Assembly: GCA_964016885.1 (NCBI GenBank)
Contig: OZ024758.1
Location: 15,934,001-15,998,000 of the forward strand
Reading direction: 5' to 3'
Length of the DNA stretch: 64,000 nucleotides
From: Eledone cirrhosa
Lineage: Eukaryota
This document shows positions 7,014 to 63,119 of this stretch, piece after piece (the first letter of the stretch is position 1; every line of letters begins with the position of its first letter). Made by a program: the position numbers and the translations under genes. Below the pieces are notes generated by a model. The model was not told where the DNA came from. It searched no databases and was given only the letters and a program-made list of their open reading frames with translations.

Positions 7014-7192
7014 TATATATATATATATATATAAATAATAATTTCAATTATTATTATATATATATATATATATATATGTTAAGTATTTCCGAAGAAAAAA
7101 AGAGTGCTCTATATTTAAAACAGAGTTATTTAATAAGAAAATATATAACACAATATATAACTACTCCAGATAGAGGGGTTAATAGAAAACCC

Positions 7193-7260: not shown

Positions 7261-7311
7261 TAGTTATATATTGTGTTGTTCACTTTTTAATTAAATATAT
7301 ATATATATATT

Positions 7312-7760
7312 TATACCATGATATTAAATAAATGGAAACTATATTTATAAAACCATATTTATTTTATATATTTCAAGGGCAACCAAGACAACATTGGTGC
7401 GCTTTCATCAGATAAAATACAAAGTTTGTTTTATAAATAGAGACATACCCATGAAAATTCTACCTTACCGGTTGGAAATTCACTGAATTCAGTGAATTTC
7501 CGACCGGTAAGGTAGAATTTTCATGGGTATGTCTCTATTTATAAAACAAACTTTGTATTTTATCTGATGAAAGCGCACCAATGTTGTCTTGGTTGCCCTT
7601 GAAATATATATAATAAAATAAATATGGTTTTATAAATATAGTTTCCATTTATTTAATATCATGGTATATTTACTCTAGTAACTTGTTGAGTGCTCTAAAT
7701 CAGTTATAAACATTTATGTTTGTTGGACTTCCAACAAATTAAATACAACTTCCATATCAT
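7312..7760 (+). mobile_element. Penelope-like/retrozyme-type element with tail-to-tail inverted arms (palindrome 7312-7668)
   Basis: ~176-bp arms centred on GAATTC (7485-90) and adjacent to (TA)n. It contains the hammerhead motif and ends in a TTGTTGAGTGC-containing tail. Confidence 0.55.
7556..7620 (+). ncRNA. Minimal type I hammerhead ribozyme motif
   Basis: Helix I TATTTTAT (7556-63) pairs with ATAAAATA (7613-20). Core CTGATGA at 7564-70. Helix II AAG-GCA-CCAA/TTGG-TGC-CTT. GAAA at 7601-04. Short palindromic helix III TATATA. Cleavage triplet AUA ends at 7612. Confidence 0.7.
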
Positions 7761-10197: not shown

Positions 10198-12770
10198 TTA
10201 GTTCACTTCTTCAGGTTCAGGCTCTGGTTTATTGAACTGGTCTTCAGTTATTTCTGTATGATTATTGTAGTTCTCCATCACAACGCCTGCCAATTTCTCA
10301 AGATTGCAGTCAGCCAGGGCCGTTGTAAGAAGAGTTACCTTCTCTTTAGGTTTGTTGTTTTCTTTTGACCGGTACCAATTAAAAAGTACGCTCTTAGACA
10401 GTTGATAGATTTCTCTCTCACCAGCATCTCTAAGACCATACTTCCCACATATCCCCAACACATAATTTATTATGGTTGTATTGGAGATGTTTAACAGCAT
10501 TCCAAGTTGAATTGCATCAACGCCATCTTTAACTTGTTTCGCCAACAGAGTTAAGCTATTCTCGCATATAATAACAGCTCTGTCAATAGTTGGCGGAGTC
10601 TCTGAAAAAAATATATAGAAGAAAGGCTAAATAGTCAGAGATTAATTCTTTTATTAGTATAAAATGGTGGCATTACAAAGAGCATCCAGCTGTAGAGACC
10701 AAGCCAAAATCAGTTTCGGTATGAGCAAAACATGGTTACCTGACCTAGCATTGCCCACAACAGGACAACTTGTCTAACCCATGTTAGCGTGGAAAAATGG
10801 ACGTAAAACGGTGATTATGATTTCTAAAGAAAAATATTGCCTATTATTTTCAAGTCATTTTGAAAATAATAGGAGATGATGAAGGACCGTGACAAGTGGA
10901 GAGCTGCTGTGCTGAATAGGACCTGTCCCACCCTTGCAAGCAGGGAAAAGCGGACATAAAATGATGATGATGATGATGAAGGATTTGATAAATAAAATAG
11001 TTTGGAACATAACAAATGTTCTTACATAAAATTATGATGGAAGATTTTTAGATTACTATAAACAGCTTAGTATCACAGAATCAGGGGCAGTTTACAGTGC
11101 CAAATTTACCATTGTGTTTAGATGTGCTTAAGCACAGGGACCTGTTGGCCAGGGGGTTGGCCCATCTTCCTGCTGGACAGAATAGAGAAGGCGGTTCCCT
11201 GGAGGATGGTGAGGGAGATGCGCTGGAAGAGCCATTCCAGCTCGCGAGGCTCACACCTGCGGGGAGACTAATCTGTATTGATGGTGGTGAACAGGGAGGT
11301 GGCCCTAGGGCCAAGGACAACAAAAGTCTCCAGTATCGGTAGAGCGTCGGACAACATGCTTTGCGGCATAAAGTTACAGCCCGTTACGTTCTGAGTTCAA
11401 ATCCCACCAAGGTTAGCTTTGCCTTTCATACTTACGGGGAGGGGGGGGGGGGTCGATAAAATAAAGTACCAGTAACACACTGGGGTCAATTTAACCGCCT
11501 TTTCCTTCCCCCCAAATTACTGGCCTTGTGCTTATACTAGAAATCATTATTATCTCACGAGGGCTTGGGATTGGCAGTATCGGTAGAAGGTCGGACGCCA
11601 TGTTTTCTAGCATAGTTACGTCCCTTTACGTTCTGAGTTCAAATCCCACCAAGGTTAACTTTGCCTTTCATCCTTACGGGGTCGATAAAATAAAGTACCA
11701 GTAATGCACTGGTATAATTGCTGGCCTTGTGCCAAAAGTAGAAACAATTATTATCTCACGAGGGCGGTGGATTGGCAGTATCGGTAGAGAGTTGGACGCC
11801 ATGCTTTGCAGCAAAGAGTTACAACCCTTTACGGTCTGAGTTAAAATCTTGCCGAGGTTAACTTTGCCTTTCATCCTTACGAAGTCAATAAAATAAAGTA
11901 CCAGTAATACACTGGAAATAATTGGCTTTGTGCCAAAGTAGAAATAATTATTATCTCACGCATTTTTATCAGAAGAAATTAAAAACACGACCATACTAAC
12001 ATATTTAGGGTCAATAGAAAATCAGTATAGTAAAAACCAAAGCACAAGTATATTGAAACAAATTATTTTCCACATTTTTGGAGGGGCTTAAGCTCTAAAA
12101 CCCCATAATGTGCTGGAAGGCTCGGATAGATAAGATAATTGTCGCAGAAGTTAGGTGGACTAAACATTTTGTTAAACGTATATAAAAAAGGAGATATGGT
12201 GGTATGACTAGACATTTACTTACAATTGTCGATAACTTTATTAATGTCTTTTGTGATTATGAAAACAGAAAGGGAAAGACTAGGGCTCTAGGGTCACAGA
12301 AGAATGACGAGGGGTAAGGATGATGGGCTCTGTGCTTAGGAGGCGGCGGTATTGGGGTTTACATATTTACGAAATTGTTAAATCGTAGCTAAAAAGATAT
12401 AAAATAATTAGTTCTGGTATATTTCGTTCGTCTCTAAGGTTTAAAATTTACTTATTTGTTTATTTGTGGGAATTTATCGTAAATTAGGTTTTGAGGTTTA
12501 AAAAAAAATATCTAAAAAAAGAAAACATATTTTATTTTATCAAGGTGTATGAAAATTTAATAATATAATTCATTGAACAATAATGATAAAGGTTTAAAAT
12601 TATTCTAATAATAATGATTTCTACTACAGGCACAAGGCCAGCAATTTTGGGAGGAGGGGGAAGTCGATTAAATCGACCCTAGAGTATTACTGGGGTGTTT
12701 TATTCTAATAATACATGTAACATTACTAACCTGCATCCGAATCACTAAACGTTACCGATTGTTGACGCAT
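10198..12770 (-). CDS. Small death-domain-like protein (~147 aa)
   Basis: Terminal exon 10601-10198 (acceptor ttttcag, stop TAA) encodes ...LLAKQVKDGVDAIQLGMLLNISNTTI...LSKSVLFNWYRS...VTLLTTALADCNLEKLAGVV, a death-fold helical pattern. A phase-compatible upstream exon 12770-12731 (MRQQSVTFSDSDA, donor gttagt) joins it. The N-terminus is uncertain; another donor ATG|gtaagt sits at 14690-14682. Confidence 0.6.
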
Positions 12771-13335: not shown

Positions 13336-13627
13336 GTATATATTATATGTGTTTGTGTTCAGTAACCATTATATTCGCCGAGGTTAGCTTTGCCTTTCAT
13401 CCTTACGGGGATAATAAAATAAAGTACCAGTAATGTACTGTGATAATTGCTGGTCTTGTGCCAAAAGTAATCTTTCTGAATGAATCGCGAGCAATTTATA
13501 ATGTTATCTAAGCATTTGTAATGTTATTTATGTATTTATTTAAAACATATTTGTTATGTTATTCTACTGTCAATTTATTTATATGCTCTGTTTATGTTTT
13601 CATTCTGAAAGAATTGCAAACGATTTG

Positions 13628-14320
13628 TTGGTGGCCTACTCAGCCTGGACGAACTTCGTGTCTCCATCGCCCTCAGAGTGGGAGCTGACGTCTGCATGGG
13701 TTTGAGGTACCGATGCGGCAAACTCCTCGACTCTACAGGCCTCCACGGTCTTTCTTGCTGCCTGAATGCCGGCCGCTTCGCGCGTCACACGGAGCTAAAC
13801 TTCATTCTGAAGAGAGCTTTGGCCCGGGCGAATATCCCTTCAGTCTTGGAACCATCTGGGTTGTCCAGAAGTGATGACCTTACCCTGTGCCCCTGGTTGA
13901 GAGGCAGGTGCCTTGTCTGGGACGTCACTGTTAGTGACTCTTTTGCTTTCCCCCACATCCTAGATGCTGCGGTTAGGACGAGAGCCACTGCTTCCGCAGC
14001 CGAGCGGAATAACACCCTCAAATACTCTGATCTGTCGGCCAGCTACATTTTTCAGCCTGTGGCTTTCGAGACGTTTGGGGGAGTCGGGCCGCTGACTGCG
14101 AGGTTCCTCTCTTCACTGGCGGCTCGCCTAATAGAGGTAACTGGCGAATCTCGCGAGGACGCTTGGCTGTTTCAGCGCACCAATTTCGTCATCACCTGAG
14201 GCAACGCTGCCAGTGTGCTGGCTTGCCTCAAAAGTCATTAGAGAGGTTGCCCAGTACTCTTCGCGACGTTGCTGTATTTTGCTCTGGTATTGGCTCGGTT
14301 ATTCACTTCTTCCTTTAATA
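13628..14320 (+). mobile_element. CRE/R2-group non-LTR retrotransposon 3' fragment (Zn knuckle plus restriction-like endonuclease)
   Basis: ORF 13678-14199: RCGKLLDSTGLHGLSC (decayed CCHC), RHxxLNxILKRAL, EPSGLSRSD..DLTLCPW..GRCLVWDVTV, KYSDL..YIFQPVAFETFG. Decayed, with the RPD motif partly deleted. Confidence 0.8.
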
Positions 14321-15239
14321 TTGTAACAAGAATATATCTTTCTGAATGAATCGCGAGCTATTTATAATGTTATCGAAGCATTTGTAATGTTATTTATGTA
14401 TATATTTAAAACATATTTGTTATATTATTCTACTGTAAATTTATATGCTCTTTATACTGTAAATTTATATGCTCTGTTTATATTTTCATTCTGAAAGAAT
14501 TGCAAACGATTTGTAATGTTATTTATACTTAATAAAAATTGAAATGTTACATTTAAAAAAAAAAAAAAAGTTGTAATATTATTTATACAACGATGAATTT
14601 TTTTTATACAAACAACTGTGACTAAAATATTTTCTTCCTACACGGAAAAACAACAACAAACAACAAAACTAATTAATAAGCACTTACCATCGTTCTCAAT
14701 ATTAATCATAACGATAACAATGAAGTTTGTTAAGTGAAATAAATTCTGGTTAAATAAACACAAATATTTCTCATTCGTTTTCACAATGCTTTTTTTTTTG
14801 TTTTTTTCACTTTAATCATATATATCTTTATGTATTATATTTAAATGATTACATGTATATACCGCTATTTAATCTTATATATTTGTTATATGATAATAAA
14901 ACTTTATCTTTACGATTATGTAGTCAGTAGGTTACCTTACTTGTTGCTTAGCAACATAGTTACCTATTATTTGTTAATGATTCAGGTGTCATTCACAATG
15001 GATCTCGTTTCAGATTTTTTTTTTCTTTATCAGTCCAATTGACTGATTCATTATTTATATATATATAATAAAGTACCAGTAATGCACTGAGTTATTGCTG
15101 GCCTTGTGCCTAAAATAGAAACAATTATTTATATATATATATATATATATTTATTTATTTATATATAGGAAAAGATTCAGGACCCCGACGGTTGAGCTCC
15201 GGCCGTTTCGACACTTGGTTCCTTACCACACTTTCTTTG

Positions 15240-15310
<71 letters not shown>

Positions 15311-15313
<3 letters not shown>

Positions 15314-15480
15314 AGGGTGTCTCGCCAAAATTTATACACACTTTGATTACCTGTAGAGGCAATATTTATTAGAATGCTGTTGAGGTGTGTATACATTTAT
15401 TTGCGACACCCTGTGTATGTATATATATATATATATATATATATACATACACAGGGTGTCGCAAATAAATGTATACACTT
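15311..15480. mobile_element. Small Tc1-like MITE (TA-CAGGGTGT...ACACCCTG)
   Basis: CAGGGTGTC/GACACCCTG termini inside (TG)/(TA) tracts. Relatives at 30355-30435, 31555-31628, 32020-32108 and 42240-42310. Confidence 0.65.
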
Positions 15481-16141
15481 ATATATATATATATAAGTAG
15501 AGTCGGGGGGAAACCACAATAAAAGGGTACTCAATACGTGTCTCTCTATATATATATATTATAAATACACATATGTATGTGTGTGTGTATATGTATATAT
15601 ATATATATATATATAATAACTCCGGAAAACTATCTGTTGAGTGCTTCCAATCTATTGTAAAACTAATTCTTTGATTTATTCATCGAACTTTGTTTAACCT
15701 TTAAATATATATATATATATAAACTATTTTACACTGAGTAAAATGATTTTCACCTTCTTTATTAATAATATCCAGTTAAACTCAAACATTTTGACCAAGA
15801 AATAAACTTCTATTTTTGGAGTAAAATTACTGGTATATTAAAACACAAAACAACTTTTACCCCTCCACCCGACTGTCAAATTATATAATTTTAAAATATT
15901 TAATATGGTGCAAGCTCTCGTAACTGGTTGACGGAATGTAAACACTATAATCGACATTTTCCGTCACATTTTAATAGGCACACACACATATTTATAAATA
16001 TATATATGGGTAAAGTTATACACATACACATATATATATATATACTGAAACATTTATTTAAATAAATATTTGCTCTACGGTTCTTATATATTTATCCTTA
16101 TTGAGCCCTCTTTGGATTTTAGTCTTCAAGTTTATTATTAT

Positions 16142-16182
<41 letters not shown>

Positions 16183-29600: not shown

Positions 29601-30443
29601 TACCAGCTTGTGTGTTGTATGTGGTCCTAGATGTGTGTATTACCTGACTAGGTGTTGTATATGGTCCTAGATGTATGTATTACCTGCTTATGTGTTGTAT
29701 GTGGTCCTAGATGTATGTATTACCTGCTTATGTGTTGTATGTGGTCCTAGATGTATGTATTACCTGCTTATGTGTTGTATGTGGTCCTAGATGTGTGTAT
29801 TACCTGCTTATGTGTTGTATGTGGTCCTAGATGTGTGTATTACCTGCTTATGTTGCATGTGGTCCTAGATGTGTGTATTACCTGCTTATGTGTTGTATGT
29901 GGTCCTAGATGTATGTATTACCTGCTTGTGTGTTGTATGTGGTCCTAGATGTGTGTATTACCTGCTTGTGTGTTTTCTTTTTCCCTTTTCAATACTATTT
30001 ATACAATTGTAAATAAAGTCCAATATCCACAGGTCATATCAACAATGATGTCTCCCAGCTCACTTACGATATATATCTAAAAACAGAATTTACTTTCAAC
30101 TCTTGCTCGTCTTTTTGGTGACCTAAATAAGAAGAACCCCAAAAGAATCTCCTCACCCGCAGTTCACATAAGGTGTTGACTTTGCTGAGGTGAACTCGCT
30201 AAGGAGATCTACGAACTAAGAAAATAAGGATGTATTTCCTTATCTACAGATTCATTTGTGTTTAACAAAAACTTTAGAATAGAAACACAACATACATTTT
30301 TCCATATCTATTTTTTTGGATCACTTAATACGATAAAAAGTGTAAATATATATATACAGGGTGTCCTCAAAAGTGTATACACACTTCAACAGAATTCTAA
30401 TAAAAGTGTGCATACATTTTTTGGGACACCTTGTATGTATGTG

Positions 30444-30475: not shown

Positions 30476-33400
30476 TATATATATAGTAATAATAATAAAT
30501 TTGAAGACTAAAATCCAAGGAGTGCTCGATAAGGATAAATATATAAGAACCGTAGAGCAAATATTTAACGGGATCTTCTGAAACTGTTTCAGAAGATCCC
30601 GTTAAGGGTGAAAGCAGCGATTCTTTGCTTAAACTTTAATCTATTATTTTAATAAATATATATATACATATCAGAGAGAGAGAGAGGTTGGGGGGCGGGG
30701 CGGGGATAACGTCGATGTTTGTAGAAACATTTATTCTTGGTATGTTTTGTTGTGCTCTATACGCAAAACTAGTCTGAGCATTAAAATAGAGGCCGGGATA
30801 TTTTGAAGCAGCACACTTGGTAGGTTTAGTACACACCATTGATAGCACCCACATTTTACGAGAGAGAGAGAGAGAGAGAATGTGTGTGAGAGGGAGAGAG
30901 ACAGAGATAGAGAGAGAAGATGAGAAGAGAAGAGAGAGAGAGAGAGAGTAAGAGGTAAATGGAAAGAGTTGTACTTTCCATCCATTTAATTATTATTCGT
31001 CATTAAAAAAATAGTTAATGGCAAGTGTGTGTGTGTGTGTATATACATATACATATATATACACACACAAATATAAATATAAATATATCCAATTCATTCA
31101 TGTGTGTAAACCAGCTTCCAAAGTGTGTGTAATGTTAGAAGAATGAAGGTTAAGGAGACAGAGAACATGATTTATCAAGGTCAAGAGAATGGGAGGGCGG
31201 CGACATCGTAATTTTGTGAAATGGCATGTTTAAGATAAATGAAACATATACAGATCTTTATATTAATAAGATAAGGAACAAATCCTGTACGTGTTTAACT
31301 AGGTAAAAGGGGACGTATCTATATGACTGATATATATTGACATTTTTAAACAGATTTCAGTTAGATAAATACTCTTATATAACATATTGGGCAACATGTA
31401 TTGTTTGTAAACGTAGTTTCAGTATATCACCAGAATAAATGAGATTAAACATTTAACGGGGGTTGTCCCTTTAAGAAAGGTTTTCATATATAAACTGTCT
31501 TGATGTATTTAATTGCCCTTTTCCCCTAATATTTCCTTTACAGAAAATTCATCCAGTGTCCTCCCCAAAATGTACACACTTTTATTAGAATGCTGTTGAA
31601 GTGTGTATACATTTTTAGGGACACTATATATATATATAACGAAGGAAATGTGGCAAGGAACCAGATGGACCATAACGCACCAAAGTACTCAATACTTAGG
31701 GTAGTAGAGTGTGTAATAGGAACGAGTAGGACCCCGACGGCTGAGCTCCAGCCGTTTCGACGGCTAATTTTAGTCCAGAATTAGCCGTCGGGGTCCTACT
31801 CGTTCCTATATATATATATAGAGAGAGATTATATCGGTTTTAATCTAGTAAGACCATTATCCAACAGAGTACTCGATACTTGGGACAGTAGAGTGAAACT
31901 ATAACAGAGAGTTGGGGTCAGACGGTTGAGGTCTTAACGTTTCGATAGCAAATTTCAGAGACTGGAATTTGCTGTCGAAACTGCAACAGCTCAGCCGTCG
32001 GGCCCCCGACTTTCTACCAAAAATGTATACACACTTCAACAACATTCTAATAAATATTGCTTGTGCGGGTAATCAAAGTGTGTATACATTTTTGGGAGAC
32101 ACCCTGTGTATATCGACTAATTTAAAAAGATGTAATGTAACAATGTTCATTAAAAGTTAACAATAAATCAACGCTGTTTGAACGGTTTGTAAATATATAT
32201 ATTTCCAGTGAAACATTGTCAACTAGTGAAATACCGATATTTTCCCAAGGTTACTTTTTATATGCCAAAAATAATAGTTTAAGAGAAAAAAAAAACATGT
32301 TTCTTTTTCCTTCTAAATTACAAATATTAGACTGGGAGCCTAGAAGTTTATACTTAATCTCAATGTACATAAAACACCTTTTATGCGTTTATATTTGTAT
32401 ATAGATCGTTTGTGTTTTCGTTCTGTAAACATATTATCCTTACGGTGTCGATAAAATAAAGTACCAGTAATGCACTGGTTTAATTGCTGGCCTTGTGCCA
32501 AAAGTAGAAACAATTATATTATAGTTTTATACAACTAACGGTGAATAAAAGACTTTAAAAGATTAAAAAACACGTTGTTAATTCAAAAATTTCAAATTAA
32601 CGTAAATACAACCAACATCCAACCAAAAAGTATTAAAAGGTTGTTAAGCTGTTTTGACCTTTCGTTTTATGAACTCTTTCTATAATAATTATATTCAAAT
32701 TATGAACATGATTCATTTAAACATTTAAATGATTCCTTTAGAAAATAAAGGAAAGGAAAAAATATTGAATTGGTGATCTGTGTCAGCTTAAAAAAACAGT
32801 TAAAGTAGGTTTTTTTTAATAAAAAAACCCAAAACAAGGTCATTTTGTGTTGTGAGGAGAGGTTAAGGTGTTAAAAATTGGGAGTAGGGACTTTCTAAGA
32901 TTGGGACGGGTCATGTTATATTGCCAGAAATATATAATAAAACACACTCACTGTGAGTGTGTTTTATTATATATTTCTGGTAATATTATAACATGACCCT
33001 TCCCAAATATAACAATATTTGTCTCAACATACGTTTTCATATAAAAATAACTAGCAAAACAAATTCATCGACTTCACTTCCTAAGAAAACGGAAACGATT
33101 ATAGACATGTGTGGCTTACGTAATAACTAATATTGTGATATGTAGGGATATTATAAATTTAAATAATTTTAAAAGCCATACAATGCACTAGAAAATTAAA
33201 GATGCCAAGATAACAATACAATCTTACCATAGAAAATTTAATAATCCTCAATATTTTCGAGTTTAAAATCCCATTATTAAGGGAGTATCCCAGTGAGTCT
33301 TAAAGGATCTACAACACTGTTATTTATATATATATATATATATATTACATTGCAGAGCGAAAACATAGATCAGGTGTGGTATATGCTAACATGTTTATTA

Positions 33401-33683
33401 ATTTAGTTATTAATAGAAGTAAAAAACCCCAACAAAACCCATTATTATTTCGTATTTGTATAAAACAACACACAATAACGAGTTATGCAAACGAACATGT
33501 AAAGCTGGAGATATCGCAACATATACAAGATTACACAAATATTGTAATTATAAATCATAAATGAAACAATATATAATTATGGATATAATTTCATAGATAA
33601 ACAAAATAATTAATTAATAAACTATTTAAAAAATAAAACAGTTTTAAATCCACTGACCATGGATCACGTGCATACTCCTCCAT
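20666..33683 (-). CDS. TIMM17: Mitochondrial import inner membrane translocase subunit Tim17 (166 aa, 7 exons)
   Basis: Exons 33683-33658, 28652-28553, 27330-27267, 24672-24544, 22980-22945, 21953-21879 and 20736-20666 total 501 nt. Translation: [28 protein letters not shown]...[40 protein letters not shown]...[23 protein letters not shown]...EDPSQLP. Confidence 0.96.
20870..21332 (+). mobile_element. Decayed RTE-like LINE 3' fragment with (GTA)n tail
   Basis: Remnants PAGRPRG...[17 protein letters not shown]. Homologous minus-strand copies at 58658-58875 and ~17735-17790. Confidence 0.6.
23440..23995. repeat. 40-bp minisatellite (~14 copies) in TIMM17 intron 4
   Basis: Tandem TCCCTAGACCAGAGACCTGGTCTGAAATATTACTGGATAA. 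The first unit at ~23085-23127 is separated from the rest by a SINE B. Confidence 0.95.
26150..26550. repeat. Unclassified dispersed repeat, with an inverted copy at ~42985-43460
   Basis: ORFs 26365-26547(+) and 42985-43179(-) are near-identical translations of a repeat and do not look like real coding sequence. Confidence 0.65.
28845..29975 (+). repeat. CRE-like 3' end followed by a 40-bp minisatellite (~24 copies)
   Basis: GCTTGGCTGTTCCAGCGCATC... homologous to 14161-14250, then tandem GTGTTGTATGTGGTCCTAGATGTGTGTATTACCTGCTTGT units from ~29020 to 29975. Confidence 0.85.
31716..31809 (-). mobile_element. Fold-back element with partial hammerhead (helix II, GAAAC, helix III, GUC)
   Basis: Minus strand GACGGCTAATT..AATTAGCCGTC-GAAACGGCTG-GAGCT-CAGCCGTC-GGGGTCCT. 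Related copies at ~15165-15240, ~31905-32015, 34245-34330, ~38545-38700 and ~55140-55190, mostly beside (TA)n. Confidence 0.5.
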
Positions 33684-34111
33684 TGCTGTCAGAAAAGGGG
33701 GTGCAACTCAACACTGGCTTTAAAGACGGAACGAAAAATATATAACGAAACGAAATAGATTTTTAATTATTTTTATTTATATATTTATATATATATATAT
33801 ATTAAAAAAGAAATTAATAAAATCAGTTAATTACATTCAGGGTTAAACTTTATAACGATAGTTTAAAATATCGCAGTGTAATATTTAATTAATATTAATA
33901 TATCAAAAATATAAATATTAACACTTATGTACAATGACGTCTGTTGCTAGCCAATTTACATCATTATATCATAAAAATATCAATAATAGAAACTTTTTAC
34001 GAGCTGGTCTCTCTTACGTCAGAAAACCACGCAGTCTACATTCACTGAATTCTTTTATTCTTTTACATGTTCCAGCCATCCGGCTGATGCCATGCACCGC
34101 CCTAGAAGGAA

Positions 34112-34229
34112 ATGCTTACAGCACCTAGGTTTCCCAAGCGGTCACCCCATATAAGTATTAACTAGGCTCTACGTTGCTTAACTTCGGTGACCGGAGAACC
34201 GGTGTTTTCAGCGTGTTATGGCCGTAAAT
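34112..34229 (-). rRNA. 5S rRNA-like copy, probably a pseudogene
   Basis: Minus strand reads ATTTACGGCCATAACACGCTGAAAACACCGGTTCTC-CGGTCACCGAAGTTAAGCAACGTAGAGCCTAGTTAATACTTATATGGGGTGACCGCTTGGGAAACCTAGGTGCTGTAAGCAT. This is clearly metazoan 5S, but it has a small deletion near the GTCCGATC loop, substitutions in the box C region and no T4+ terminator. It is a solitary copy. Confidence 0.85.
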
Positions 34230-36714
34230 GATAATATATATATATAGGAAAAAGTATGACCCCGACGGCAGATCTCAAGGAGTTTCGACGGCTATTTCGG
34301 GACAGAAATAGCCGTCGAAACTTTTTCCTATTTCCCACTCTACTACCCTAAGTATTAAGTACTCTGGTGCGTTATGGTCCATCTGGTTCCATACCACGAT
34401 TCCTTTGTTACTGGCATTAGATTAACATCTACAGTACATTATATGTTTAAAAAAAGTGGGGTTGGGACCAGCTTTGCACTTTCGCCCTAGTTTCTTATTG
34501 TTGTTGTTGTTTAGCCCAAGGTCAGCGTAGACTGAGCATATCCATAATCAAAAACGTTACAGCAGTGATAATCCCATAATCTCTGTCCCAAGTATGCCCA
34601 GAACCCCAATATTTAGCGTATCCTCTCCTTTTTATGATGATAGGGTATGAATTAAGGAAGATTTAGCTGCTATTTCTAACAGGTCGAATGATCCTGTAGA
34701 GGTTCTCTCAACATTAGTTTTAGGTAGTGATATACAGCAAGAATTTTCTTTTGAATTTGCGAGAATATTAAAAAAAATACCATTGAAAAAATATATTTTT
34801 ACACTTTAATCTTAGAGTACAGCTACGTAAGGCAGACATAAACATCATTTTATATAAGATTCGCCATAGATAGACATAATCATCATAGTTTTAACGTATG
34901 TTCTTTCAAGTTGTCTTAGGATGGGTAGTTTTATAACGATAAATGATAATGAAAATTATTGTGTACAGTGCTCAGGTGCACTACAACTCACCAAAGGTGC
35001 ATGTATAATACATAGAATAATGTACAAATGTCAGGAAAGTGAACAGAGTATGAGTCATGATATACACACAGGAAACATGGATGTTTTGAAGGATGTAGTG
35101 TCTCGATAGTTAACAATTGATGCAGGTAGGTTTGTTCTACCTGTAACTCTGTAGATCCTCTATTAACCTGTGTGTAAAACCTAGAACAACAACAACAACA
35201 ACACTTTTGACATGCTTCTTACAAGTTACTGTTGCATAACAAAAGAACCCTCTGTTGCTCTTGGTAACGGAAGTAATAGTTGTCTAGACTTATTCGATCT
35301 TCTTTATTACTTTAACTATTATAACATTTTTTTTCTGCCAGGAGTTGCGACCAATAGATAGTATCAGCAATGGAAAGACCATTGGTTCAATTTGACGAGT
35401 TCCATCTTACTCGGTAAGCGAATAAGGTCAGAGATCTTGTCGATCGATCATCATCATCACCGGTTTACGTCCGTTCTTCCACGCTAACATGGGTTAGACG
35501 GGGGAACTGATTCTGGCCTGATTTCTTTCTTGATTTTTTGCCGTGGAATGATAGGGACTCCCAGTCCCTATCATCTCATTTCTACAGCTGAGTAAACTGG
35601 AGCAATAAAGTGAAATAAAGTGTCTTACTCAAGGAAACAACATATCACCCAGTCCGAGAATTGAACTCACAACCTTTCGATTGCAAGCCCAATGCTCTAA
35701 CCACTAAGCCATGCGACTTCATACACACATACACATACATATACATATATATATATAGGAAGTGTAACGTGCAGTTGCTGTAGGTTCACATGAGTGAGCA
35801 CTCTATGTGTAGTTTCCCATCAGTAGAGAGGTGTAGGACTAAGCAGAGTGTTCATTCTTTCATTACCACAGCAGAGGTCCAACGAGCTTTTGATTCCAGA
35901 GTCAGGCCAGATTGAACTCGAAATATTAGGACAGAAGAAAGAACAGCAACAACAAAAAACAAAACCAAGATTACTGGGTAATTTACTTTTTCGTTACCTC
36001 ATCTTACCATCCATTTTGCATTGTTTAACCTTCTATCTCTTTCCACATTATATATCATATACAATGCTTCAAGCACACTATAACATTTTATTAACCCTTT
36101 AGCATTTAAACTGGCTATATCCGACCTGTGTTCTTTCACCTCTTTCGCTTCAAACTGGCTGTAACCGGCCACTCATAATGATGTTAATGTATCTCAAAAT
36201 AAATAATATCAAAATCTGATAGATTTGATATTATGTGAGATAAAGCTTTTACCGTGAAAATATAATAGTAAATATAGAGTAATCTAATCTAATCTAATCT
36301 GGCCAAGTTTACACTCGCAAATAAGAACCAAGCTGCCCCTAGGAGCATTGGATTTGGTGTATTTCATATTTGTTTCAGTTGCTGAATACAATCAGAGGTT
36401 GCTGCTTCTCCTGAAGGTCAATAGCTCTCTTCTAACTTGAGCGGGAGTGCCTTTCCATTGTCAATTTACATTGATCATCTACAAAGCCACATTGTTCTCA
36501 GAACCACTTCAATGCATGCAGCTGGAACTACTGCCACCAATTGATTTGGCAGGGTTTTTTTTTTATATAGAGTAATGTAAATACTAAAGGGTTAAATATA
36601 GAGTAATGTAAATGCTAAAGGGTTAAAATAACTTTTGTTGTAAAATATAACAATAACATTAACAAAAAAGCAATTTGGATAAAAGCAGTTTAATTTTTCA
36701 ATGTTTCTATGTTG

Positions 36715-38484
36715 TTAAAATTCTAAATTAATTTGACCAGATTTAGGATAAAAAGTTAGCGTTAGGGGAAATTTCCCATTAGCAGTAGTATTAATAGGTT
36801 TGTTAAGTAAATGGACTCCTTGGCGTGTATGTTTATCCCAACAAACATAACCTTCTGATGTTTTCTCTTCACTGTTTACTATGCCTGTGCTAATAGATGA
36901 GTCGCCATATTGGAATTCTACCCAGAATGCAATGCCATTGCAGAGTCCATTTCTGAAAAGAAAAGAAATGAAAATAAATAAATGTTAACATTTATATATA
37001 TATATATTGTCGTGTCTTGATTATTTCTTGATGTGTGATTGAATAAGGAACAGTAATTTACAAATTTCTATTTCGACACAATGAAGCACAATAAACTGTT
37101 GAACTATAGATCTATAGAACTGTTGAACTATAGATCTATAGAACTGTTAAACTATAGAAATATAGAACTATTGAACTATAGATCTATAGAACTGTTAAAC
37201 TATAGAACTGTTGAACTATAGATCTGTTGAACTATAGAACTGTTGAACTATAGAACTATAGATCTATAGAACTGTTGAACTATAGAACTGTTGAACTATA
37301 GATCTATAGAACTGTTGAACTATTGAACTATAGATCTATTGAACTATAGAACTGTTGAACTATAGAACTGTTGAACTATAGATCTGTTGAACTATAGAAC
37401 TGTTGAACTATAGAACTGTTGAACTATAGATCTGTTGAACTATAGAACTGTTGAACTATAGATCTATAGAACTGTTGAACTATAGATCTATAGAACTGTT
37501 GAACTATAGAACTGTTGAACTATAGATCTATGGAACTGTTGAAATATAGAACTGTTGAACTATAGAACTATTGAATTGTTGAACTATAGATCTATGGAAC
37601 TATAGAACTATTGAATTGTTGAACAGTAGAACTATAGAACTGTTGAACTATAGATCTATGGAACTGTTGAAATATAGAACTGTTGAACTATAGAACTATT
37701 GAATTGTTGAACTATAGAACTATAGAACTGTTGAACAGTAGAACAGTAGAACTATAGAACTGTTGAACTGAAGCGAGCATATAATAATAATTGTTTCTAC
37801 TTTTAGGCACAAGGCCAGCAATTACCCAGTACATTACTGGTACTTTATTTTATCGACCCCGTAAGGATGAAAGGCAAAGTTAACCTCGGTGGGATTTGAA
37901 CTCAGAATAGCAAGGGCCGTAACTCTATGCGTCAAAGCATGGCGACCGACCCTCTACCGATACTGCCAATCCACCGCCCTTATATCCACGAGCATATAAT
38001 AATAATAACACTGAACATAATTCTGTGGTGACAGAAAGAATTGTGTACTCCTGAAACTGTCAGCTATACTTCAAACCCGTTGGATAGAATTGTGTACCCT
38101 CGTTTAGCTGAAGCTTAATATATTGGCAAAACACAGGAGCACGCTTGAAACACGTGATTGTGATATGATTGGCTGTTGTTAAATAATTAAACAATTACAC
38201 AGCACTTGTTAGATAACACTCAATACGAGTTCAATACATGACATATATATAAATATATATATATAAATATACGATATTAATAAATGGAAACTATATTTAT
38301 AAAACCATATTTATTTCATTATACATTTTCAGGGATACCACATTAAATTATGGTATGCTTTCATCAGACAAAATACAATATATAACAGTTTTACAAATAG
38401 GTTTGACGTACCCTTTAAAATACAACCATTACTTTTGGAGGCTGTCTGGATAGTATAAATATATATATATATATAACAAAGGTG

Positions 38485-38541
<57 letters not shown>

Positions 38542-38693
38542 CAAAGGTGTGGTAAGATACCGGGTGCGTTATAGCACCAGAGTACTCAATACTCAGGGTA
38601 GTAGAGTGGGTAATAGGAAAAGAGGTAGGACCCCGACGGCTGAGCTCCGGCCGTTTCGACAGCTAGATCCAAACGGGGGTCCTGACTCTTTTC

Positions 38694-38728
<35 letters not shown>

Positions 38729-41700
38729 TATATAAAACGTTTAATATAGAAATGGCTTCTACAGGACTAGAACTGTTTCATTCAAAAGTAAACATCAGGA
38801 TGTTTACACTCTACTAATGTATTGAGTACCTTAATAACTATGGTCGCCCCCCGATTGAACCTGGGACTCACTGATTATCGGCTCCCTTTTTCTTCCAGGG
38901 GTTGTGACCAGCAGATAGTACCTGCTACGGAAAAACCAAAGGAAACATTGTTTCTTTGGTCTGATCTGGCAATCAGTTACTTTTTTTAAATTTTTTATTT
39001 TTTTTACTATCAATACATTAAGACAAAAGATGGAGGGCGGTGGATTGGCAGTATCGGTGAAGGGTCGGACGCCATGCTTTCCAGCATAGTTACGTCCCTT
39101 TACGATCTGAGTTCAAATCCCGCCGAGGTTAACTTTGCCTTTCATCCTTACGAGGTCGATAAAATAAAGTACCAGTAATGCACTGGGTAATTGCTGGCCT
39201 TGTGCCTAAAGTAGAAACAAATACATTAAGACAAAAGATAGCTCACCTGTTGAATGTCAGTGTGTGTTCATAATATACTTTATTCTCATCTAAAATCGAA
39301 GAAAGATCAAAAGAAGAAATTTCCAGTGGTTCAGAGAGTGAAAAACCCGGATATTCCCAGAGAGCTTCAGCTTCAACATTTCGGTCAACTCTCAGAGAGG
39401 AATCCTGAAATTTAAATAAGATAATTCATATAAACTTGGTAATTAAACAACATTAACCTTTTAGCATTTAAACCGGCTGTATCCGGCCAGAACTATCTCA
39501 CCTCTTTCTGTTCAAACTGGTTGTAACTGGCCACTCATACTGATGTTAAGATATTGTTCTCAAAATAAATAATATCAAAATGTCATAGATTCAATATTAT
39601 GTGAGGTAAAGCCTTTACCATGAAAATACAATGGTAAATATAGAGTAATGTAAATGCTAAAGGGTTAAAGACATACATGATAAAAGCACCCAGTACACTC
39701 TGCAAAGTAGTTGGTGATAGAAAGAACATCCAGCAATAGAAAATCTGTCAAATAAAGAGTCGGCAGGACTCTACAGCTGTGTCAAAGGTATGGTAACCTC
39801 CCTAGTACTAATGCCATGATAAAATGCACTCAGTACAAAGTGAGAAGATATGTGGGCGAAATGCAGGCCTCTGGGGATTCGGTAAAGCATGGAAAAGAAT
39901 GTAAGCAAGCTGCAGGTTCCAGTCCATCTGAGAGGTCAGAGGCTTTGCTTAATCACTGGCCTGGTCTGTGATGATTTGTCCAACCCTTGCTATCAGGGAA
40001 AACCAACGTTAAATGATGATGATGGCACCAAAACGACCACTTTACAGTGTGGACTGGGTGCTTTTTGTCATGGCACCAAAACGACCACTTTACAGTGTGT
40101 ACTGGACGCTTTTTGTCATGGCACCAAAACAACCACTCTACAGGGTGGACTGGGTGCCTTTTGCCATGGTACCAAAACAACCACTTTACAGTGTGTACTG
40201 GGTGCTTTTTGTCATGGCACCTAAACAACCACTTTACAGTGTGCACTGGGGGCTGGGTCAAGGGAGGTGCAAGGGATTGGAGAGGTAGATCTAAGGTGAA
40301 AGACTTATGTGAATATAAAGATTAATAAGAAAAGCTTCTTACCTCAATCAAAGTATCAAATTCTTCTAAATAAAAACCTTCACACGTATTTACTGCCGAA
40401 CGAATCTTAGAGAGATCTTTGAATTGCATGGCCATACCGTAGATTTTCATTTTACTGGGGTAACATGTAAGTGTGGGAGATAACTCACTGAGAATGTACC
40501 AGAAATGTAAATTATGCCAGGGTAGAAGACAGGAACTAAAACTTGGTTCTCCAATAGCGATATCAACCTATAAGAAATTAGCAATAAAGTCATGATAAAT
40601 ACATATATAATGAAGGTACTATATGTATATATATATATATATATACACATGAGTCACGGGTTCAATTGGGTGTAACCACAGTAAGTAAGGTACTCAATAC
40701 ATTAGTAGAGTGTAAACATCAAATTTAATATAGAAATGGTTTCTACAGGATGGACTACTACTGTTTCATTTGAATGAAACAGTTCTAGTCCTGTAGAAGC
40801 CATTTCTACATTAAATTTGATATATGTGTATATCTGTGCCTCTCTCTATGTAAATATATATGTTAGTGTTCATGTATATATGAAAGATTTATACACTACA
40901 ATAAAAACAACAAAAACAACACTTTGTACACTTCATAAAGTGGTTAGTATTTGAATGGTAGCCAAAGATAGAGAAGTGGAGGCATGTGGCCTAGTGGTAA
41001 AGGTGTTCGACTTACGATCATAAAGTCGTGGGTTCAATTCCTAGACTGGGTTGTGTGTTGTGTTCTTGAGCAAAACACTTCATTTCACATTGCTCCAGTA
41101 TACTCAGCTGAAAACGTGTACCAGCATTTAAAGACCATCTTCCCTGCTAAAGCCGGAATTAGCCTTGTGGACCCCATGACAGATATCATATTGATAATGG
41201 GGTCCTTTTTAGGGGGCAATGTTGGATGCCCTTCTTGGCATACACACATTCAGAAAAAAGATAAAAGAAGAAAGAACTAAAGGGAAATAATACAATTTAA
41301 AATCTTACCTTCATTGAATCAAACTGTTGTTTTGTTGGTATTTTGTCTAATAATGTGATAACATCTTCAGCATTATTATATTTAATAAAAGTCTCTAAGA
41401 TGTGATAATTGTGTTTATGGGTTTCAATGGCAAACACCTGATATGAATAGAAATAAAAATGATATTAGACATTAGACCCCACAGTCAGTGACTCTTTCAG
41501 ACCTGCCAACCTCTAAATACCCTAACGGGGATCACCATGAAAAAAAGTGCCCCCAAAACGGGGAGAAATGAGGCAAAATGGGGAGATTTTACATAATGAA
41601 AGCTATACCCATTTTCATAAGAGAAGACATTTCTCACCTACCCCAAAGTGGGTGGGAGATCTCCCTGTCGGACGGGGGAGAGTTGATAGGTCTGATATAT

Positions 41701-53700: not shown

Positions 53701-55982
53701 TTGACACCCCCACCCCCACAAAATTGTAAAACCCAGTTACATCCCTTGCACCATAAGACAACCATAGTTACCAACGATTACGAAGGATTATTTGGATGCA
53801 TAAAAAGATATATATTAGCATTTATTAAGCGTATACATGAACGATTGACAAATATATTCTTAATAGTTACTTATACGACTGAACTTGGGAAAATCTTTGA
53901 ACAGGATCTAAAACATTAGCATAAAAATAAACGAGGTGTCTTTGTTGAAACGGTGTCATTTTTTACTGTCTCCGGCTAATAGTTGAAATAGCTCACGAAG
54001 TATTTTCTATCGCCTCTCAAATGGATTAATAGAAGCTCTACTATATTTTATTAAACTCATTATTTATTTACTTATAGTTTTGACAATTTTAACTATGCTT
54101 TTTTATGCGGTAACATGGGTTATTACGGTGTAAGATGAATTATGACCTAGTTAATAGAGTAGGGTGAACTTTTTTTAATGTCCCATGTTATGTTTTTATA
54201 TAAAATGAATAAATATATACAGTTTTAACCAAAAGAAAAATGTCTGATATTAAGATATTCTGAAGTACACGGTCAGTATAGAGAAGTGAAGATGGGTATA
54301 AATATATAAATATATCTATGGTTAATAAGGTCGTTTTGCAACCACGTGGTTCTGTTTTCGATCTCACTGTGTGGTAACTTAGCCAAGTGTGTTCTTATCA
54401 GAACACTCCAAATAAAAGACAAAACAGAAACATATTAAACGTAGCATGTGACTGTTTGGCAAACTTCTCAAAATACGCCTTCTTTGCAGCTTGATCTGCT
54501 AGAAACAGCACTGAAATCTCCCTCAAACTGGATAAAGCTAGATCTATATGCACTAAATTTCAATAAAAATGGTCATAGCTGGAAAGTCGTAGCTAATACA
54601 TACGCCTCCCCCCAATATATACACACTCCACCAGCATTCTAATAAATATGTGTATACATTTTTTGGGACATCTTGTATATATCTGCTGGACCAGGGCGTT
54701 ATATCATAAAATCGAATGAGTTGGAAAAAAATATATTTCGTGTAGCAGATAACTACGTTAAAATATCGGTAAAGAGTAATCTAAAAAAACAATAACCTTA
54801 GGTGGTGAAATATTAATTTTTATACACTTTAGCATATTATAAATGACAGCCAAATAGGGAATCCCTGACAATAGATGTCGAAATAAGAGAAAAACGAAAA
54901 TATATCGTCCGAATCATAGGATTTATTGCGTTAGAGAAAAGGTTACGGTTCGTTGAGGTTCCCTCGTCGGCTCATATGTATGTGTGTTTAATCAGGGTAA
55001 CCACAGTTAGTAAGGTACTCAATACATTAGTAGAGTGTAAACATCGAGTTTAATATAGAAATGGCTTCTACAAGACTAGAACTATTTTATTCAAAAGAAA
55101 TCATCGGGGCTATCCCGATGATTTCTTTATATATATATATAGGAAAGTGTTCAAGACCCCGACGGCAGAGCTCAAGCCGTTTCGACGGCTATATATATAT
55201 ATATGAGGGGAGTAGATCAAATGAATCGGACCAGATATTTTCATTTTCTTATTTTGAGATCTCTTATCAAAGTTTCCCATCAGATAAATAAAATATCTCC
55301 CAAGAAAACTGTTGTTATTTTGCCCAAGGTAGGCTTAAATTAAACAGACTTACCATCAAAGACATTCCAGATGTGACAATCCCGTCATTTTAGCTATCTA
55401 ATACTATATTATCCGATGTATAAAAGATAGCAGGGTGTAATTAGAAATATTTTTAGATATAACCCAACGACCAAGAGATGACGTAGTTTAAGATATTTGA
55501 TATATTTATGTGTATTATATTTGTTATATGTGTTTATATTTTATTCCTGAAAAAAAATGTCAGCAATTTATAAAGTTATATAATTTATAATGTTCTTTAA
55601 TTGTCAATTTACTTTCGTAATAAATCCTTATTTCTACGTTTGCCATGTAAACAATATTTTAGTCGAAAATAAAATAAATAAAGCTGATTCTTAAACTATC
55701 AATTAATTCAGCTAAGATATTATATAAAATACAAAACAGCAATCGGGTTGTAAATATATTTTAAGAGAGGAATAAAGTAAAATAACATTAAACATGACAT
55801 CAATAAAATGCTTTCTAAGTATGCGGGGTATGAGGCAAGATTGCACAGCGCAGCCATTCACTGTTTCATAGTTATAAATATACTAACCGAGCTATTTCTT
55901 GATGGTAATCATAATTTTCATCTTGTAATACCCATTCATTCTTTCCCAGGAGTGGATTGAACTGGGAAACGAATATACTCAT
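36715..55982 (-). CDS. PRMT7: Protein arginine N-methyltransferase 7 (681 aa, 14 exons)
   Basis: Exons 55982-55888, 52618-52582, 51489-51340, 50545-50437, 49483-49371, 47911-47679, 46494-46281, 45586-45456, 44335-44206, 42778-42695, 41437-41309, 40567-40343, 39404-39247 and 36952-36715 total 2046 nt in frame. Motifs: [32 protein letters not shown], double-E loop [19 protein letters not shown], and a degenerate second PRMT module ([18 protein letters not shown]). Confidence 0.96.
37095..37770. repeat. Degenerate satellite of 8-bp subunits (TAGAACTG/TTGAACTA/TAGATCTA)
   Basis: Direct inspection; lies in the last PRMT7 intron. Confidence 0.9.
38312..38375 (-). ncRNA. Hammerhead ribozyme motif, homologue of the 7556 copy
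   Basis: Minus strand TATTTTGT-CTGATGA-AAGCATACCA...TGGTATCCCT-GAAA-ATGTATA-ATGAAATA. Flanks are shared with the 7312-7668 element. Helix II differs in sequence but still pairs (ATACCA/TGGTAT). Confidence 0.55.
39452..39668. mobile_element. piggyBac-type MITE (TTAA target, CCCTTTAGCATTTA TIR)
   Basis: TTAA-CC(C)TTTAGCATTTA...TAAATGCTAAAGGG-TTAA. About 15 full or partial copies, e.g. 22062-22272, 26815-27026, 27362-27590, 36091-36626, 43806-44032 and 50147-50382. Confidence 0.8.
41498..41694. mobile_element. hAT-like MITE
   Basis: Imperfect terminal inverted repeat CAGACCTGCCAAC / GTTGATAGGTCTG. Confidence 0.5.
46587..46907 (+). mobile_element. RTE LINE 3' fragment
   Basis: [22 protein letters not shown], same family as 7760-8285, with a (TGA)n tail. 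Confidence 0.85.
47170..47595. repeat. (CAC/CCA)n compound microsatellite
   Basis: Trinucleotide tract in PRMT7 intron 6. Confidence 0.95.
47915..48200. repeat. ~80-bp tandem triplication of a SINE A tail at the PRMT7 exon-6 acceptor
   Basis: AAAATAAGAGAAACAAATTAATAAT..TTCTACGTTAGGCACAAGGCCAGCAATTACCCAGTGTATTACTGGTACTTT, about 3.5 copies. Confidence 0.85.
50818..51125 (-). mobile_element. RTE LINE 3' fragment
   Basis: [31 protein letters not shown]. Confidence 0.85.
52901..53232 (+). mobile_element. tRNA-derived SINE family B with RTE-derived tail
   Basis: TGGCTTAGTGGTTAG (A box), GAGTTCAATTC (B box), TGTCCTTGAGCAAGACACT core, GGAAGGGCATCCAGC, and tail CCCACCCTTGCAAGCAGGGAAAAG. Copies at 18062-18428, 23130-23438, 41718-42048, 35455-35720(-) and 17365-17510(-). 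Confidence 0.85.
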
Positions 55983-59800: not shown

Positions 59801-61339
59801 TTATTATTACAAAGGGTGGTCGATTGGCAGTATCGGTAAAGGGTCTGACGCCATGCTTTGCAGCGCAGAGTTATGACACCTTTACGTTCTGAGTTCAAAT
59901 CCTGCCGAAGTTAACTTTGCCCTTCATCCTTACGGAGTCGATAAAATAAAGTACCAGTAATGCACTGGGATAATTGCTGGCCTTGTGCCAAAAGTAGAAA
60001 CAATTATTACAAATTATCATTACAAATTAACTCAAAACTAATTTATCTTGGAGAGTGTATTCTTCCATAATTGGATCTTGTTTTTATTCAACTTTAATCT
60101 GAAAGAAAAATAATAATGTCTTGTTCATACAGAACTGTTTCTTGCTTAGCTTCTACGGCTGGATGCCAACCACATTTACAGAGTGTACTGGGTGCTTTTT
60201 ATTGTGACTCCAAAACGACCACTTTACAATGTGGACTAGGCGCTTTTGGTCGTGGTACCAAAACGATCCCTTTACAGTGTGGACAAGGCACTTTTGGTCA
60301 TGGTACCAAAACAACCAGTTTACCAGTTTGTGCAATTGAGCTTGTAACTATTTCGTTACTATATTTTTAATGAATTAACCTGTGTTTCAATTTATTCTGA
60401 AATTTGTTACCGTTATATTTATTTATATATTTATTCAAGGTTTGTCCAAAAAGTAAGGCTATTGATGTTTTATTTAAATGTACATTAGATGTGTAAGGCG
60501 GCGAATTGGCAAAGTCAAAATGTCGGATATAATGTTTTGCAAGGTCAACTTTGCCTTTCATCCATTCGAGGTGGATAAAGTACCAGTCTAGTTACTGGAG
60601 CTGATTCTTCCTCTATACATCTTTTCCATACTGGCATAAGTTTGTGTTAAAGAATTGTTTCAATATCAGAATTGTTGAGTTTCACACAAAATTTGATTGC
60701 ATGTTGCTGTACCATATTTTCTATTACATATGTAATAGAGGTTATAAACACGTCTGTACATAAACAGCAATAACTCTTGACTCACTCAATTGATCATGTT
60801 GAAACAAGTATGTATGTGCAGTTCATATACATAAACGAGGTGCTGTGTTACCATGTCGTACATAGGGAAATTAGTACCCTTACTTTTGGGACAAATCTCA
60901 TATAACGTTATTACATGTTCTAGTTGACAGGCTGAGGCCATGCTGGGGCACCACCATTATATAAACTTTAAACATTTTTTTTTTAGGTTTGATTCTTAAA
61001 GATGGAAGCATCAACTGGAATTGTCCATGTCTTGGCGGTATGGCTTCAGGCCCTTGTGGTGTACAGTTCCGAGACGCATTTTCCTGTTTCCACTACAGTG
61101 AGATGCAGCCAAAAGGCTCTGAGTGCTACGACGCCTTCAAAACTATGCAAGAATGTATGAGTGAATATCCTGACCTTTATCCAAGCAAAGATGATGATGA
61201 TGTAGCTGAAATTGACTCTAAAAAAGACTCAGAAACTGTTCAAAATAAGGATGAATCTGACACTATTGTCACCTCAACACCACCGCCTCCACCACCACCA
61301 GCATCATCATCATCAACATCATCAGTTGAAGTATCTTGA
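56882..61339 (+). CDS. CHCHD4: Mitochondrial intermembrane space import oxidoreductase MIA40/CHCHD4 (155 aa, 3 exons)
   Basis: Exons 56882-56903 (MSYCRKE), 59594-59686 ([14 protein letters not shown]...) and 60987-61339. Contains [24 protein letters not shown] (CPC motif) plus twin CX9C. Confidence 0.95.
59075..59422. repeat. 41-bp minisatellite (~8 copies) in CHCHD4 intron 1
   Basis: Tandem CTAGAGTGGCACCCGAACGACTGGCTGCACCAGTGGCACAT. Confidence 0.95.
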
Positions 61340-63092: not shown

Positions 63093-63119
63093 ATATATAT
63101 ATATATATATATATATATA

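Follow-up and report, generated by a model that had tools for sequence, protein, structure and literature searches.

The window analysed here is a stretch of 64,000 nucleotides of the Eledone cirrhosa genome (GCA_964016885.1, contig OZ024758.1, positions 15,934,001 to 15,998,000 of the forward strand; coordinates below are those of the window). An earlier note on it had described TA-associated fold-back elements containing parts of a hammerhead ribozyme. These fold-backs are probably a new family of Penelope-type stubs resembling the ends of Hydra-clade elements, the Hydra assignment being made from 3' end features. Their most likely origin, to which we give a probability of about 0.6, is a Penelope-like retroelement of which they would be 3' ends truncated on the 5' side, with a Hydra-clade protein as the probable copying enzyme. 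The link to Penelope, suspected from the start, is supported by an inverted arm, a one-sided tail, (TA)n targeting and a tail hairpin. That hairpin, standing beside an internal end, is the fresh and testable point; the remaining pattern is mostly ordinary and already described in outline.

The host is an octopod, as had been supposed: for the exon of MIA40/CHCHD4 at 60989-61339 (plus strand), the best two of 997 matches come from Octopus sinensis (92% identity) and Argonauta (87%). The window holds six copies of the family, copies 4-6 having been recovered by BLAST of copies 1-3 against the window. For a survey of reads, four of the six listed sequencing runs carrying the same species label (one contig set and three runs of restriction-site-associated DNA, RAD) were matched to 31633-31813 at 80% likeness. 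Matches were found for 12,825 of 16.3 million contigs, and for 23,224, 23,971 and 27,391 reads out of 12.5-12.8 million in each RAD run (0.19-0.22%). Together with six copies per 64 kb, this suggests a copy number of the order of 10^4-10^5, with RAD being a biased sample and contig depth not being equal to copy number. No RNA run was among those listed as containing the repeat, which carries no information on expression. Exact family patterns occurred at 0 loci in metagenome contigs, viral contigs and prokaryote genomes, as expected for an octopus repeat. We found no published account of the family or of the tail hairpin, though the family may sit in the O. vulgaris library, Repbase or Dfam; a full-text literature search with five family motifs led to unrelated papers only, among those listed.

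Folding at the three sites first described is genuine: 31716-31809, 31901-32016 and 34245-34331 gave z values of -6.4 to -12.4 over six strand readings, equalled by 0 of 200 shuffles, and a 32-nt core pattern matches the window four times, whereas 100 shuffles gave 0 matches. These spans are the fold-back cores; the elements themselves reach further, the earlier boundaries having omitted a tail of ~80 nt. Five of the six copies have two arms arranged head to head. The tail-less arm closes in TTCCTA (T1), and the tail arm extends ~80 nt further, closing in TTTGTTA (T2); the hairpin between the arms had been read as hammerhead helix II ('helix II' below).

31637-31809: copy 1 as a whole, tail arm (minus strand) and tail-less arm (plus strand).
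31637-31769, minus strand: tail arm of copy 1, with GAAAC, helix III, GTC, GGGGTCC, T1 (31716), the ~80-nt tail and T2 (31637) at (TA)n.
31770-31809, plus strand: tail-less arm of copy 1, whose T1 end borders (TA)n and which matches the other arm in 27 of 27 letters.
~31840-32016: copy 2, diverged; tail arm ~31840-31957 (minus strand), tail-less arm 31958-32016 (plus strand).
34245-34410: copy 3; tail-less arm 34245-34304 (minus strand), tail arm 34305-34410 (plus strand).
38539-38696: copy 4; tail arm 38539-38674 (minus strand), tail-less arm 38675-38696 (plus strand), without 'helix II'.
15166-15242: copy 5; tail-less arm 15166-15215 (minus strand) plus the final 27 nt of the tail, without 'helix II'.
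55140-55191, minus strand: copy 6, a lone tail-less arm between (TA)n runs, beginning at -8 from GAAAC.

Counted from the G of GAAAC, the tail arm and tail-less arm start at -11 and -20 in copy 1. The two arms start at -14 and -19 in copy 2, where they are ~77% alike, and at -12 and -18 in copy 3, where the overlap is identical (18/18). The tail arm of copy 4 begins at -17 and its tail-less arm at the base after GTC, with differences at 2 of 22 positions; the tail-less arm of copy 5 begins at about -3 to -6. In four of the six copies the longer arm comes to its end 17-20 nt upstream of GAAAC. Deletions are also seen: in the tail-less arm of copy 1 a deletion between two AGCCGTC repeats has removed GAAAC and helix III, and the tail arm of copy 3 lacks helix III and GGGGTC. 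The tail of copy 4 carries an 11-nt local inversion in the 38574-38563 region, and a similar small inversion was seen in one contig joint.

The right-hand ends T1 and T2 are fixed against (TA)n, whereas the left-hand ends vary among fold-back copies. Nine of the 12 outer ends adjoin (TA)n; the TA association claimed for the family holds for these and fails at both ends of copy 2 and at the tail end of copy 3. Across the RAD runs, 3321, 2824 and 2911 reads carry (TA)n ahead of T1 (agreement 0.81-0.85). Read depth continues beyond T1 as far as T2, and the T1-T2 distance is ~80 nt in both window copies and reads, indicating a one-sided tail extension. It stays high between T2 and 31766 and collapses beyond, the contig bin 31773-31779 having 6.6% of the depth of 31759-31765. 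The right end of copy 2 adjoins a clipped, Tc1-like miniature inverted-repeat transposable element (MITE), and one of these MITEs clips the end of the copy. Outside copy 3, 15 nt away across a TA run, lies a match to 5S ribosomal RNA (34113-34229, minus strand; Rfam, 80.2 bits), likely a dispersed pseudogene.

The arms contain the 3' half of a hammerhead, most completely in copy 1.

31736-31758, minus strand: 3' half of a type I hammerhead in copy 1, with GAAAC, a 7-bp helix III and GTC.
31759-31789, no strand assigned: 'helix II' of the earlier note, the junction of the two arms of copy 1.

On the minus strand of copy 1 the parts follow in hammerhead order: GAAAC (31758-31754), helix III (ACGGCTG/CAGCCGT), GTC (31738-31736) and GGGGTCC. 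The earlier description of these parts is accurate for this copy, but helix III is complete only there; it has mismatches in copies 2 and 3 and is absent from one arm of copies 1 and 3. Its first two pairs (A-T and C-G) are retained in all seven arms that hold helix III. CTGANGA, already reported as missing, is found upstream of the half core in none of the six window copies, all of which end short of where the 5' half of a hammerhead would sit. We propose that the copies are dead as ribozymes because the 5' half of the core was never included. Rfam returned no hammerhead among 64 window matches at E<=1, and also missed two complete cores in the window.

'Helix II' is an inversion product: its stem is the stretch from -1 to -11 paired to its own inverted copy, and the earlier view of it as a native helix does not survive. 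Loose ends behind 31769 (56 contigs) open with CTGGACTAAA, the reverse complement of which fills the 'loop' of copy 1 at 31770-31778, and those behind 31766 (221 contigs; 3832, 4098 and 4096 reads) open with a related GATC variant. Since the loop's reverse complement is what follows 31769 in reads of other copies, the loop is native upstream sequence of the longer arm. The 30 upstream letters given by the reads contain no native 5' arm for 'helix II', and no native helix I partner was found in the upstream sequence from reads. A pile of read ends at 31769 was considered as an element end and dropped, since both AATT sites (31766-31769 and 31779-31782) pile up in the RAD runs, which points to an enzyme site. 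For the copy 1 subfamily the RAD runs are blind past 31769 because the molecules end at AATT sites.

Behind 31766 the RAD consensus is similar over 30 letters in the three runs, and an estimated 10-40% of the loose RAD reads of the GATC subfamily share an upstream continuation; the same calculation gave no such share for the contig consensus. Given this shared upstream sequence, the label 'non-autonomous' that the family had been given is not supported. In one of the three RAD runs the consensus reads CTGCTGAT 20 nt before CGAAAC on the sense strand, and the other two are each one letter off. The spacing of this motif is right for a core, and it differs from the Hydra form in one letter; over the open places, five of six core letters would agree by chance with a probability of ~0.04-0.09. 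No partner for helix I can be drawn around it, the helix II that can be drawn is weak, and the shared stretch may be one repeated flank. A6C is a naturally occurring active hammerhead variant (PMC7151607).

Just downstream of T1 stands the tail hairpin, which is common to four other hammerhead-bearing families in the window (B, C, D and E).

31684-31710, minus strand: tail hairpin of copy 1, with R-CTC, a 3-bp stem and loop, a 2-nt bulge and GAG-Y-AC, 5 nt downstream of T1.

T1 sits 0-6 nt before the hairpin in all five window families. A descriptor of the hairpin matched eight places in the window, against a mean of 0.35 (maximum 3) in 60 block shuffles. The count is partly circular, seven of the eight places having been known when the descriptor was written; the eighth (7125) is new and lies beside a complete Hydra-style core at 7199. 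A covariance model built on 10 training sites gave 14 matches at E<=5, namely those 10 and four others: a second copy of family D at E 0.0069, the family C tail at E 0.13, and two further matches that are weak. Two of these four are in hammerhead-family ends.

When the published Hydra consensuses (PMC8557442) were inspected by eye, the hairpin was clear in three of six: Hydra-2_Amil and Hydra-2_Ajap (in both, after the hammerhead) and Hydra-1_Ajap (twice, at the start). It was degenerate in Hydra-1_Crog and was not seen in Hydra-1_Amil or Hydra-1_Obim. The upper-stem pairs of the Hydra hairpins co-vary (TAC/GTA, TGC/GCA, TGTCC/GGACA), and Hydra-1_Ajap closes in ATATATT and opens 2 nt before its hairpin. 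Six nine-letter forms of the 3' side matched the 584,334-character supplement seven times, four times at Hydra ends and three times within other records without a visible stem. The words 'hairpin' and 'stem-loop' have 0 occurrences in the main text of PMC8557442. According to that paper, (TA)n is preferred in 26 of 27 Hydra families, one family is found in Octopus, and inverted 5'-truncated copies and one-sided tails are general features of these Penelope-like elements. The clade itself is defined by protein features (RWK, DKT, CxCX5C and the absence of CCHH) and by position in the reverse transcriptase tree. In the fold-backs, (TA)n insertion, a Hydra-clade feature, is evident from the window ends and from thousands of T1 reads. 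An inverted, 5'-truncated adjacent copy, a feature of endonuclease-positive (EN+) Penelope-like elements, is present in five of the six window copies. A direct partial tandem (pseudo-LTR, that is, pseudo-long terminal repeat) flanking an open reading frame (ORF), another feature of such insertions, was not found in the 64-kb window. Head-to-head truncated arms with a one-sided tail are a described insertion form (PMC8557442), and not the new mechanistic signature that had been suggested.

The comparison families in the window are as follows.

7077-7300, no strand assigned: family E, whose tail-less arm carries a complete hammerhead in the Hydra style, with CTGATGA at 7199, and whose other arm has the hairpin at 7125.
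7290-7720, no strand assigned: family C, a 130-bp fold-back with CTGATGA at 7564 and 7411 and a tail hairpin at 7669-7696.
63119-63305, also 38735-38900, 40650-40833 and 54990-55130, no strand assigned: family B, with a CTGATGAT..TGAAAC core and the same tail hairpin.
30500-30665, second copy near 16045-16145, no strand assigned: family D, with the same tail hairpin.

The arms of family B meet at or near the core, and those of family D meet 4 nt upstream of a core that is one letter off. The arm junctions of B and D lie near the 5' edge of the core, whereas those of C and E lie past it; this lends some weight to the idea that the breaks bear a relation to the ribozyme, but not via a helix II hairpin. 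Thirteen letters of the family E hammerhead (7188-7252, plus strand) are the exact reverse complement of part of the helix II region published for Hydra-1_Obim; family E is possibly a relative with a flipped helix II. A second copy of family C (38250-38380, minus strand) has CTGATGA at 38367 and a truncated tail hairpin. At the far ends of family B tails (38835-38900, 40650-40680, 63270-63300 and 15497-15520) the opposite strand resembles the 3' end of a transfer RNA (tRNA; GGTTCAAT..ACCA), with no call by ARAGORN or Rfam. Another TA-flanked end, at 15616-15720 (plus strand), matches the tail hairpin weakly (E 2.1), and 32918-32986 is a 34-bp fold-back.

Joints between opposite strands occur in the reads as well. 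The read tables cover 24 of the 648 rows for loose ends, 15 of the 33 for joints and 12 of the 17 for between-letter positions, to which the word listed refers below. The tail arm is broken at 31663-31735, away from 'helix II', in 14 of the 15 listed joints; this table under-counts centre joints because the reference stretch itself contains one. Centre joints are represented by 54 contigs in which a second GAAAC arm follows beyond 31790. They also show in the insertion/deletion rows, of which 9 of the 11 listed fall in the centre, at 31769-31775. The breakpoint check proposed in the earlier note had a divided outcome: fold-back centres do recur 11-20 nt upstream of GAAAC, with differing junctions, but other copies break all along the element. 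The centres recur near GAAAC because both arms share a 5' limit.

In 5 of 12 listed between-letter rows the tail-less arm begins at 31771-31773 (-19 to -17), as in four of the six window copies. For the GATC subfamily, listed joints amount to ~5-7% of joints plus loose reads at 31766. Six of eight listed right-arm joints fall at 31790-31792, the first bases after GTC, representing about four loci after removal of duplicates, plus copy 4. This cluster, which lies near the shortest placeable arm length, is only a hint of cleavage after GTC or of a stall at the base of helix III.

To account for these structures, we favor a reading in which a Hydra-clade protein would nick both strands at a (TA)n target, with one cDNA (complementary DNA) initiated at T1 and another at T2. 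The start positions would likely be set by the hairpin, aided by the TA letters at both sites. Both cDNAs would stop at or short of the 5' edge of the ribozyme region and be joined head to head through 1-3 matching letters; where both reached nearly to that edge, the seam would resemble helix II. Single arms would later be trimmed by deletions between short repeats. In vitro, a lizard element has both target strands cut and extended, its reverse transcription begins at two internal sites flanking the tail, and ribozyme cleavage is dispensable (PMC11167929). Penelope-like elements make up 6.83% of the O. vulgaris assembly, in 190 families (PMC13282606); hammerheads go unmentioned in the excerpts of PMC8967140.

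Several observations weigh against this reading. No reverse transcriptase or GIY-YIG ORF was found in the window by a six-frame motif scan and by Pfam on 7 of 28 ORFs. The fold-back family showed no complete core, though Hydra elements are reported to have canonical ones, and the tail is ~80 nt long against the 30-40 nt described. Helix III exceeds the lengths in the Hydra table and pairs equally well or better on the opposite strand in all seven arms that hold it. Within their overlap, the two arms of copy 1, and likewise those of copy 3, show no difference, as if from one template or after later conversion. In the alignment of window hairpins, 94.6% of positions are paired with two two-sided changes (13/500 shuffles), a weak covariation, and the Hydra comparison was made by eye on six sequences.

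A bolder and tentative possibility is that the fold-backs are a ~155-nt, high-copy, non-autonomous 'half-hammerhead' RNA parasite of Hydra-clade Penelope elements, docking via the conserved hairpin. Its template would start ~20 nt upstream of GAAAC, the catalytic core having been shed. The hairpin, kept from coral and sea cucumber to octopus, would dock the telomerase-like reverse transcriptase, and the internal start 0-6 nt upstream of it would place UA letters for pairing with nicked (TA)n. If true, this would define a minimal cis signal for Hydra retrotransposition.

Alternatively, a single cDNA could fold back and later be trimmed from the centre, an account that we consider unlikely. It explains copies 1 and 3 better than the joining of two cDNAs does, and copy 2 worse. 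Palindromes undergo centre deletion. Consistent with this account, private letters are common to both arms of copies 1 (27/27) and 3 (18/18), and one arm extends to -17 to -20 in four of six copies while the other is variable. The concentration of insertion/deletion rows at 31769-31775 (9 of 11 listed) would also be expected, and at least eight listed tail-arm breaks lie at 31707-31722, where pairing ends. By contrast, the arms of copy 2 are only ~77% alike and those of copy 4 differ at 2 of 22 letters, copy 5 and the joints to 31790-31792 have two short arms, and ~93-95% of the GATC-subfamily reads beyond 31766, among the rows listed, enter unlike sequence with no second arm.

The mechanism first proposed appears improbable. 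In it the template contains a whole hammerhead, a native helix II makes reverse transcription stall or snap back, and CTGANGA gives way to the inverted sequence. Three window copies and dozens of contigs (the 54 past 31790) are centred 11-20 nt upstream of GAAAC, families B and D likewise break near the 5' edge of the core, and CTGCTGAT in one RAD run, taken with the natural A6C variant, would be in its favor. The helix, however, is made by the junction, and the native upstream sequence has neither a 5' arm for helix II nor a helix I arm. The centres shift (-11/-20, -12/-18, -14/-19) and the loop is found in both orientations; breaks lie elsewhere in three of six window copies and in 14 listed joints; and a snap-back of cDNA primed at T1 cannot provide the tail.

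The least probable account, a DNA element (a MITE or Helentron type) with sub-terminal inverted repeats whose hammerhead likeness is chance, draws on the inverted repeats, the TA flanks and the presence of genuine Tc1-like MITEs within these (TA)n clusters, but is largely refuted by arms of 20 to >130 nt around a moving centre, by the existence of single arms, and by families C and E, in which the same layout and tail hairpin accompany complete hammerhead cores. Fixed inverted repeats around a fixed core, as a MITE or Helentron would have, were looked for, and the centre was found to move, the arms to vary and single arms to occur. The MITEs (31545-31630, 32015-32110, 30355-30430 and 15311-15420) are ~80-110 nt long with ends TACAGGGTGT, and we take them to be Tc1/mariner-like.

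Other identities were rejected. For a short interspersed nuclear element (SINE) derived from tRNA or 5S, no Pol III head was seen within the element: ARAGORN called 0 genes and Rfam gave no match on any copy. The opposite strand was considered as the RNA, as helix III is better there through G-U pairs, but in the Hydra consensuses the hairpin follows the hammerhead on the GAAAC strand. A ribozyme like that of hepatitis delta virus on the opposite strand found no fitting P1/P3 layout by eye. The third arm of a parvovirus-like T-shaped end is a deletion product in one copy only. Membership in Naiad was dropped, only GTCGAAAC being shared by eye with octopus Naiad 3' ends. A non-LTR retrozyme was set aside, with no tandem array at copies among 72 rows and no CTGANGA.

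Elsewhere in the window, the commonest dispersed family is a ~195-nt SINE-like repeat (1225-1420 and ~20 other places), whose copy at 61504-61590 is a fold-back. A 196-amino-acid frame at 13609-14199 (plus strand) has no Pfam match and presumably resembles the restriction-like endonuclease end of a CRE/Hero-type retroelement. A 142-amino-acid frame at 10198-10626 (minus strand), also with no Pfam match, has what we take to be a death-domain-like look.

Fold-back stubs of Penelope-like elements are an ordinary by-product. The tail hairpin, by comparison, is a short marker that might assign tens of thousands of ORF-less octopus repeats to the Hydra clade, and its fixed position after the internal end offers a direct test of start-site choice by telomerase-related enzymes. 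Abundant head-to-head copies would yield double-stranded RNA; octopus-type animals are known for heavy RNA editing.

Among known systems, the closest are the C-terminal endonuclease Penelope-like elements of the Hydra clade, including Hydra-1_Obim (PMC8557442), which are alike in (TA)n targeting, presence in Octopus and the inverted 5'-truncated copy. In the Hydra consensus ends, as in the fold-backs, a GAAAC..GT-H 3' half lies 50 nt before a bulged tail hairpin. Unlike Hydra elements, the fold-backs have no ORF or CTGANGA that was seen and have a longer helix III, and the 3' end of Hydra-1_Obim itself bears no likeness to them by eye. The EN+ Penelope unit and PAc of Anolis (PMC8557442; PMC11167929) have in common with the fold-backs a one-sided tail set between two right-hand ends, arms placed head to head, targets rich in AT and no need for ribozyme cleavage. 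Both ends of the fold-backs finish on TA letters that fit the target, while for PAc the start involves no homology; compared with the EN+ Penelope unit, the fold-back tail is ~80 rather than 30-40 nt and no tandem pseudo-LTR was seen.

Opposite-strand pairs and single minimal hammerheads have been attributed to truncated Penelope elements (Cervera and de la Pena 2014, PMC4209133); relative to these dispersed minimal hammerheads, the fold-backs have only half a core. Non-LTR retrozymes (PMC7229834; bioRxiv 10.64898/2026.07.22.740005) are likewise short, protein-free, hammerhead-related and proposed to depend on Penelope, but form head-to-tail tandems with whole ribozymes, whereas the fold-backs are head to head and incomplete. 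The octopus Naiad elements (Naiad_Obim and Naiad_Ovul; PMC8557442) resemble the fold-backs in (TA)n targeting, in having no canonical hammerhead and in GTCGAAAC ~90 nt from the 3' end; the Naiad ends examined show no further likeness by eye and no tail hairpin, the feature that the fold-backs have in common with Hydra ends.

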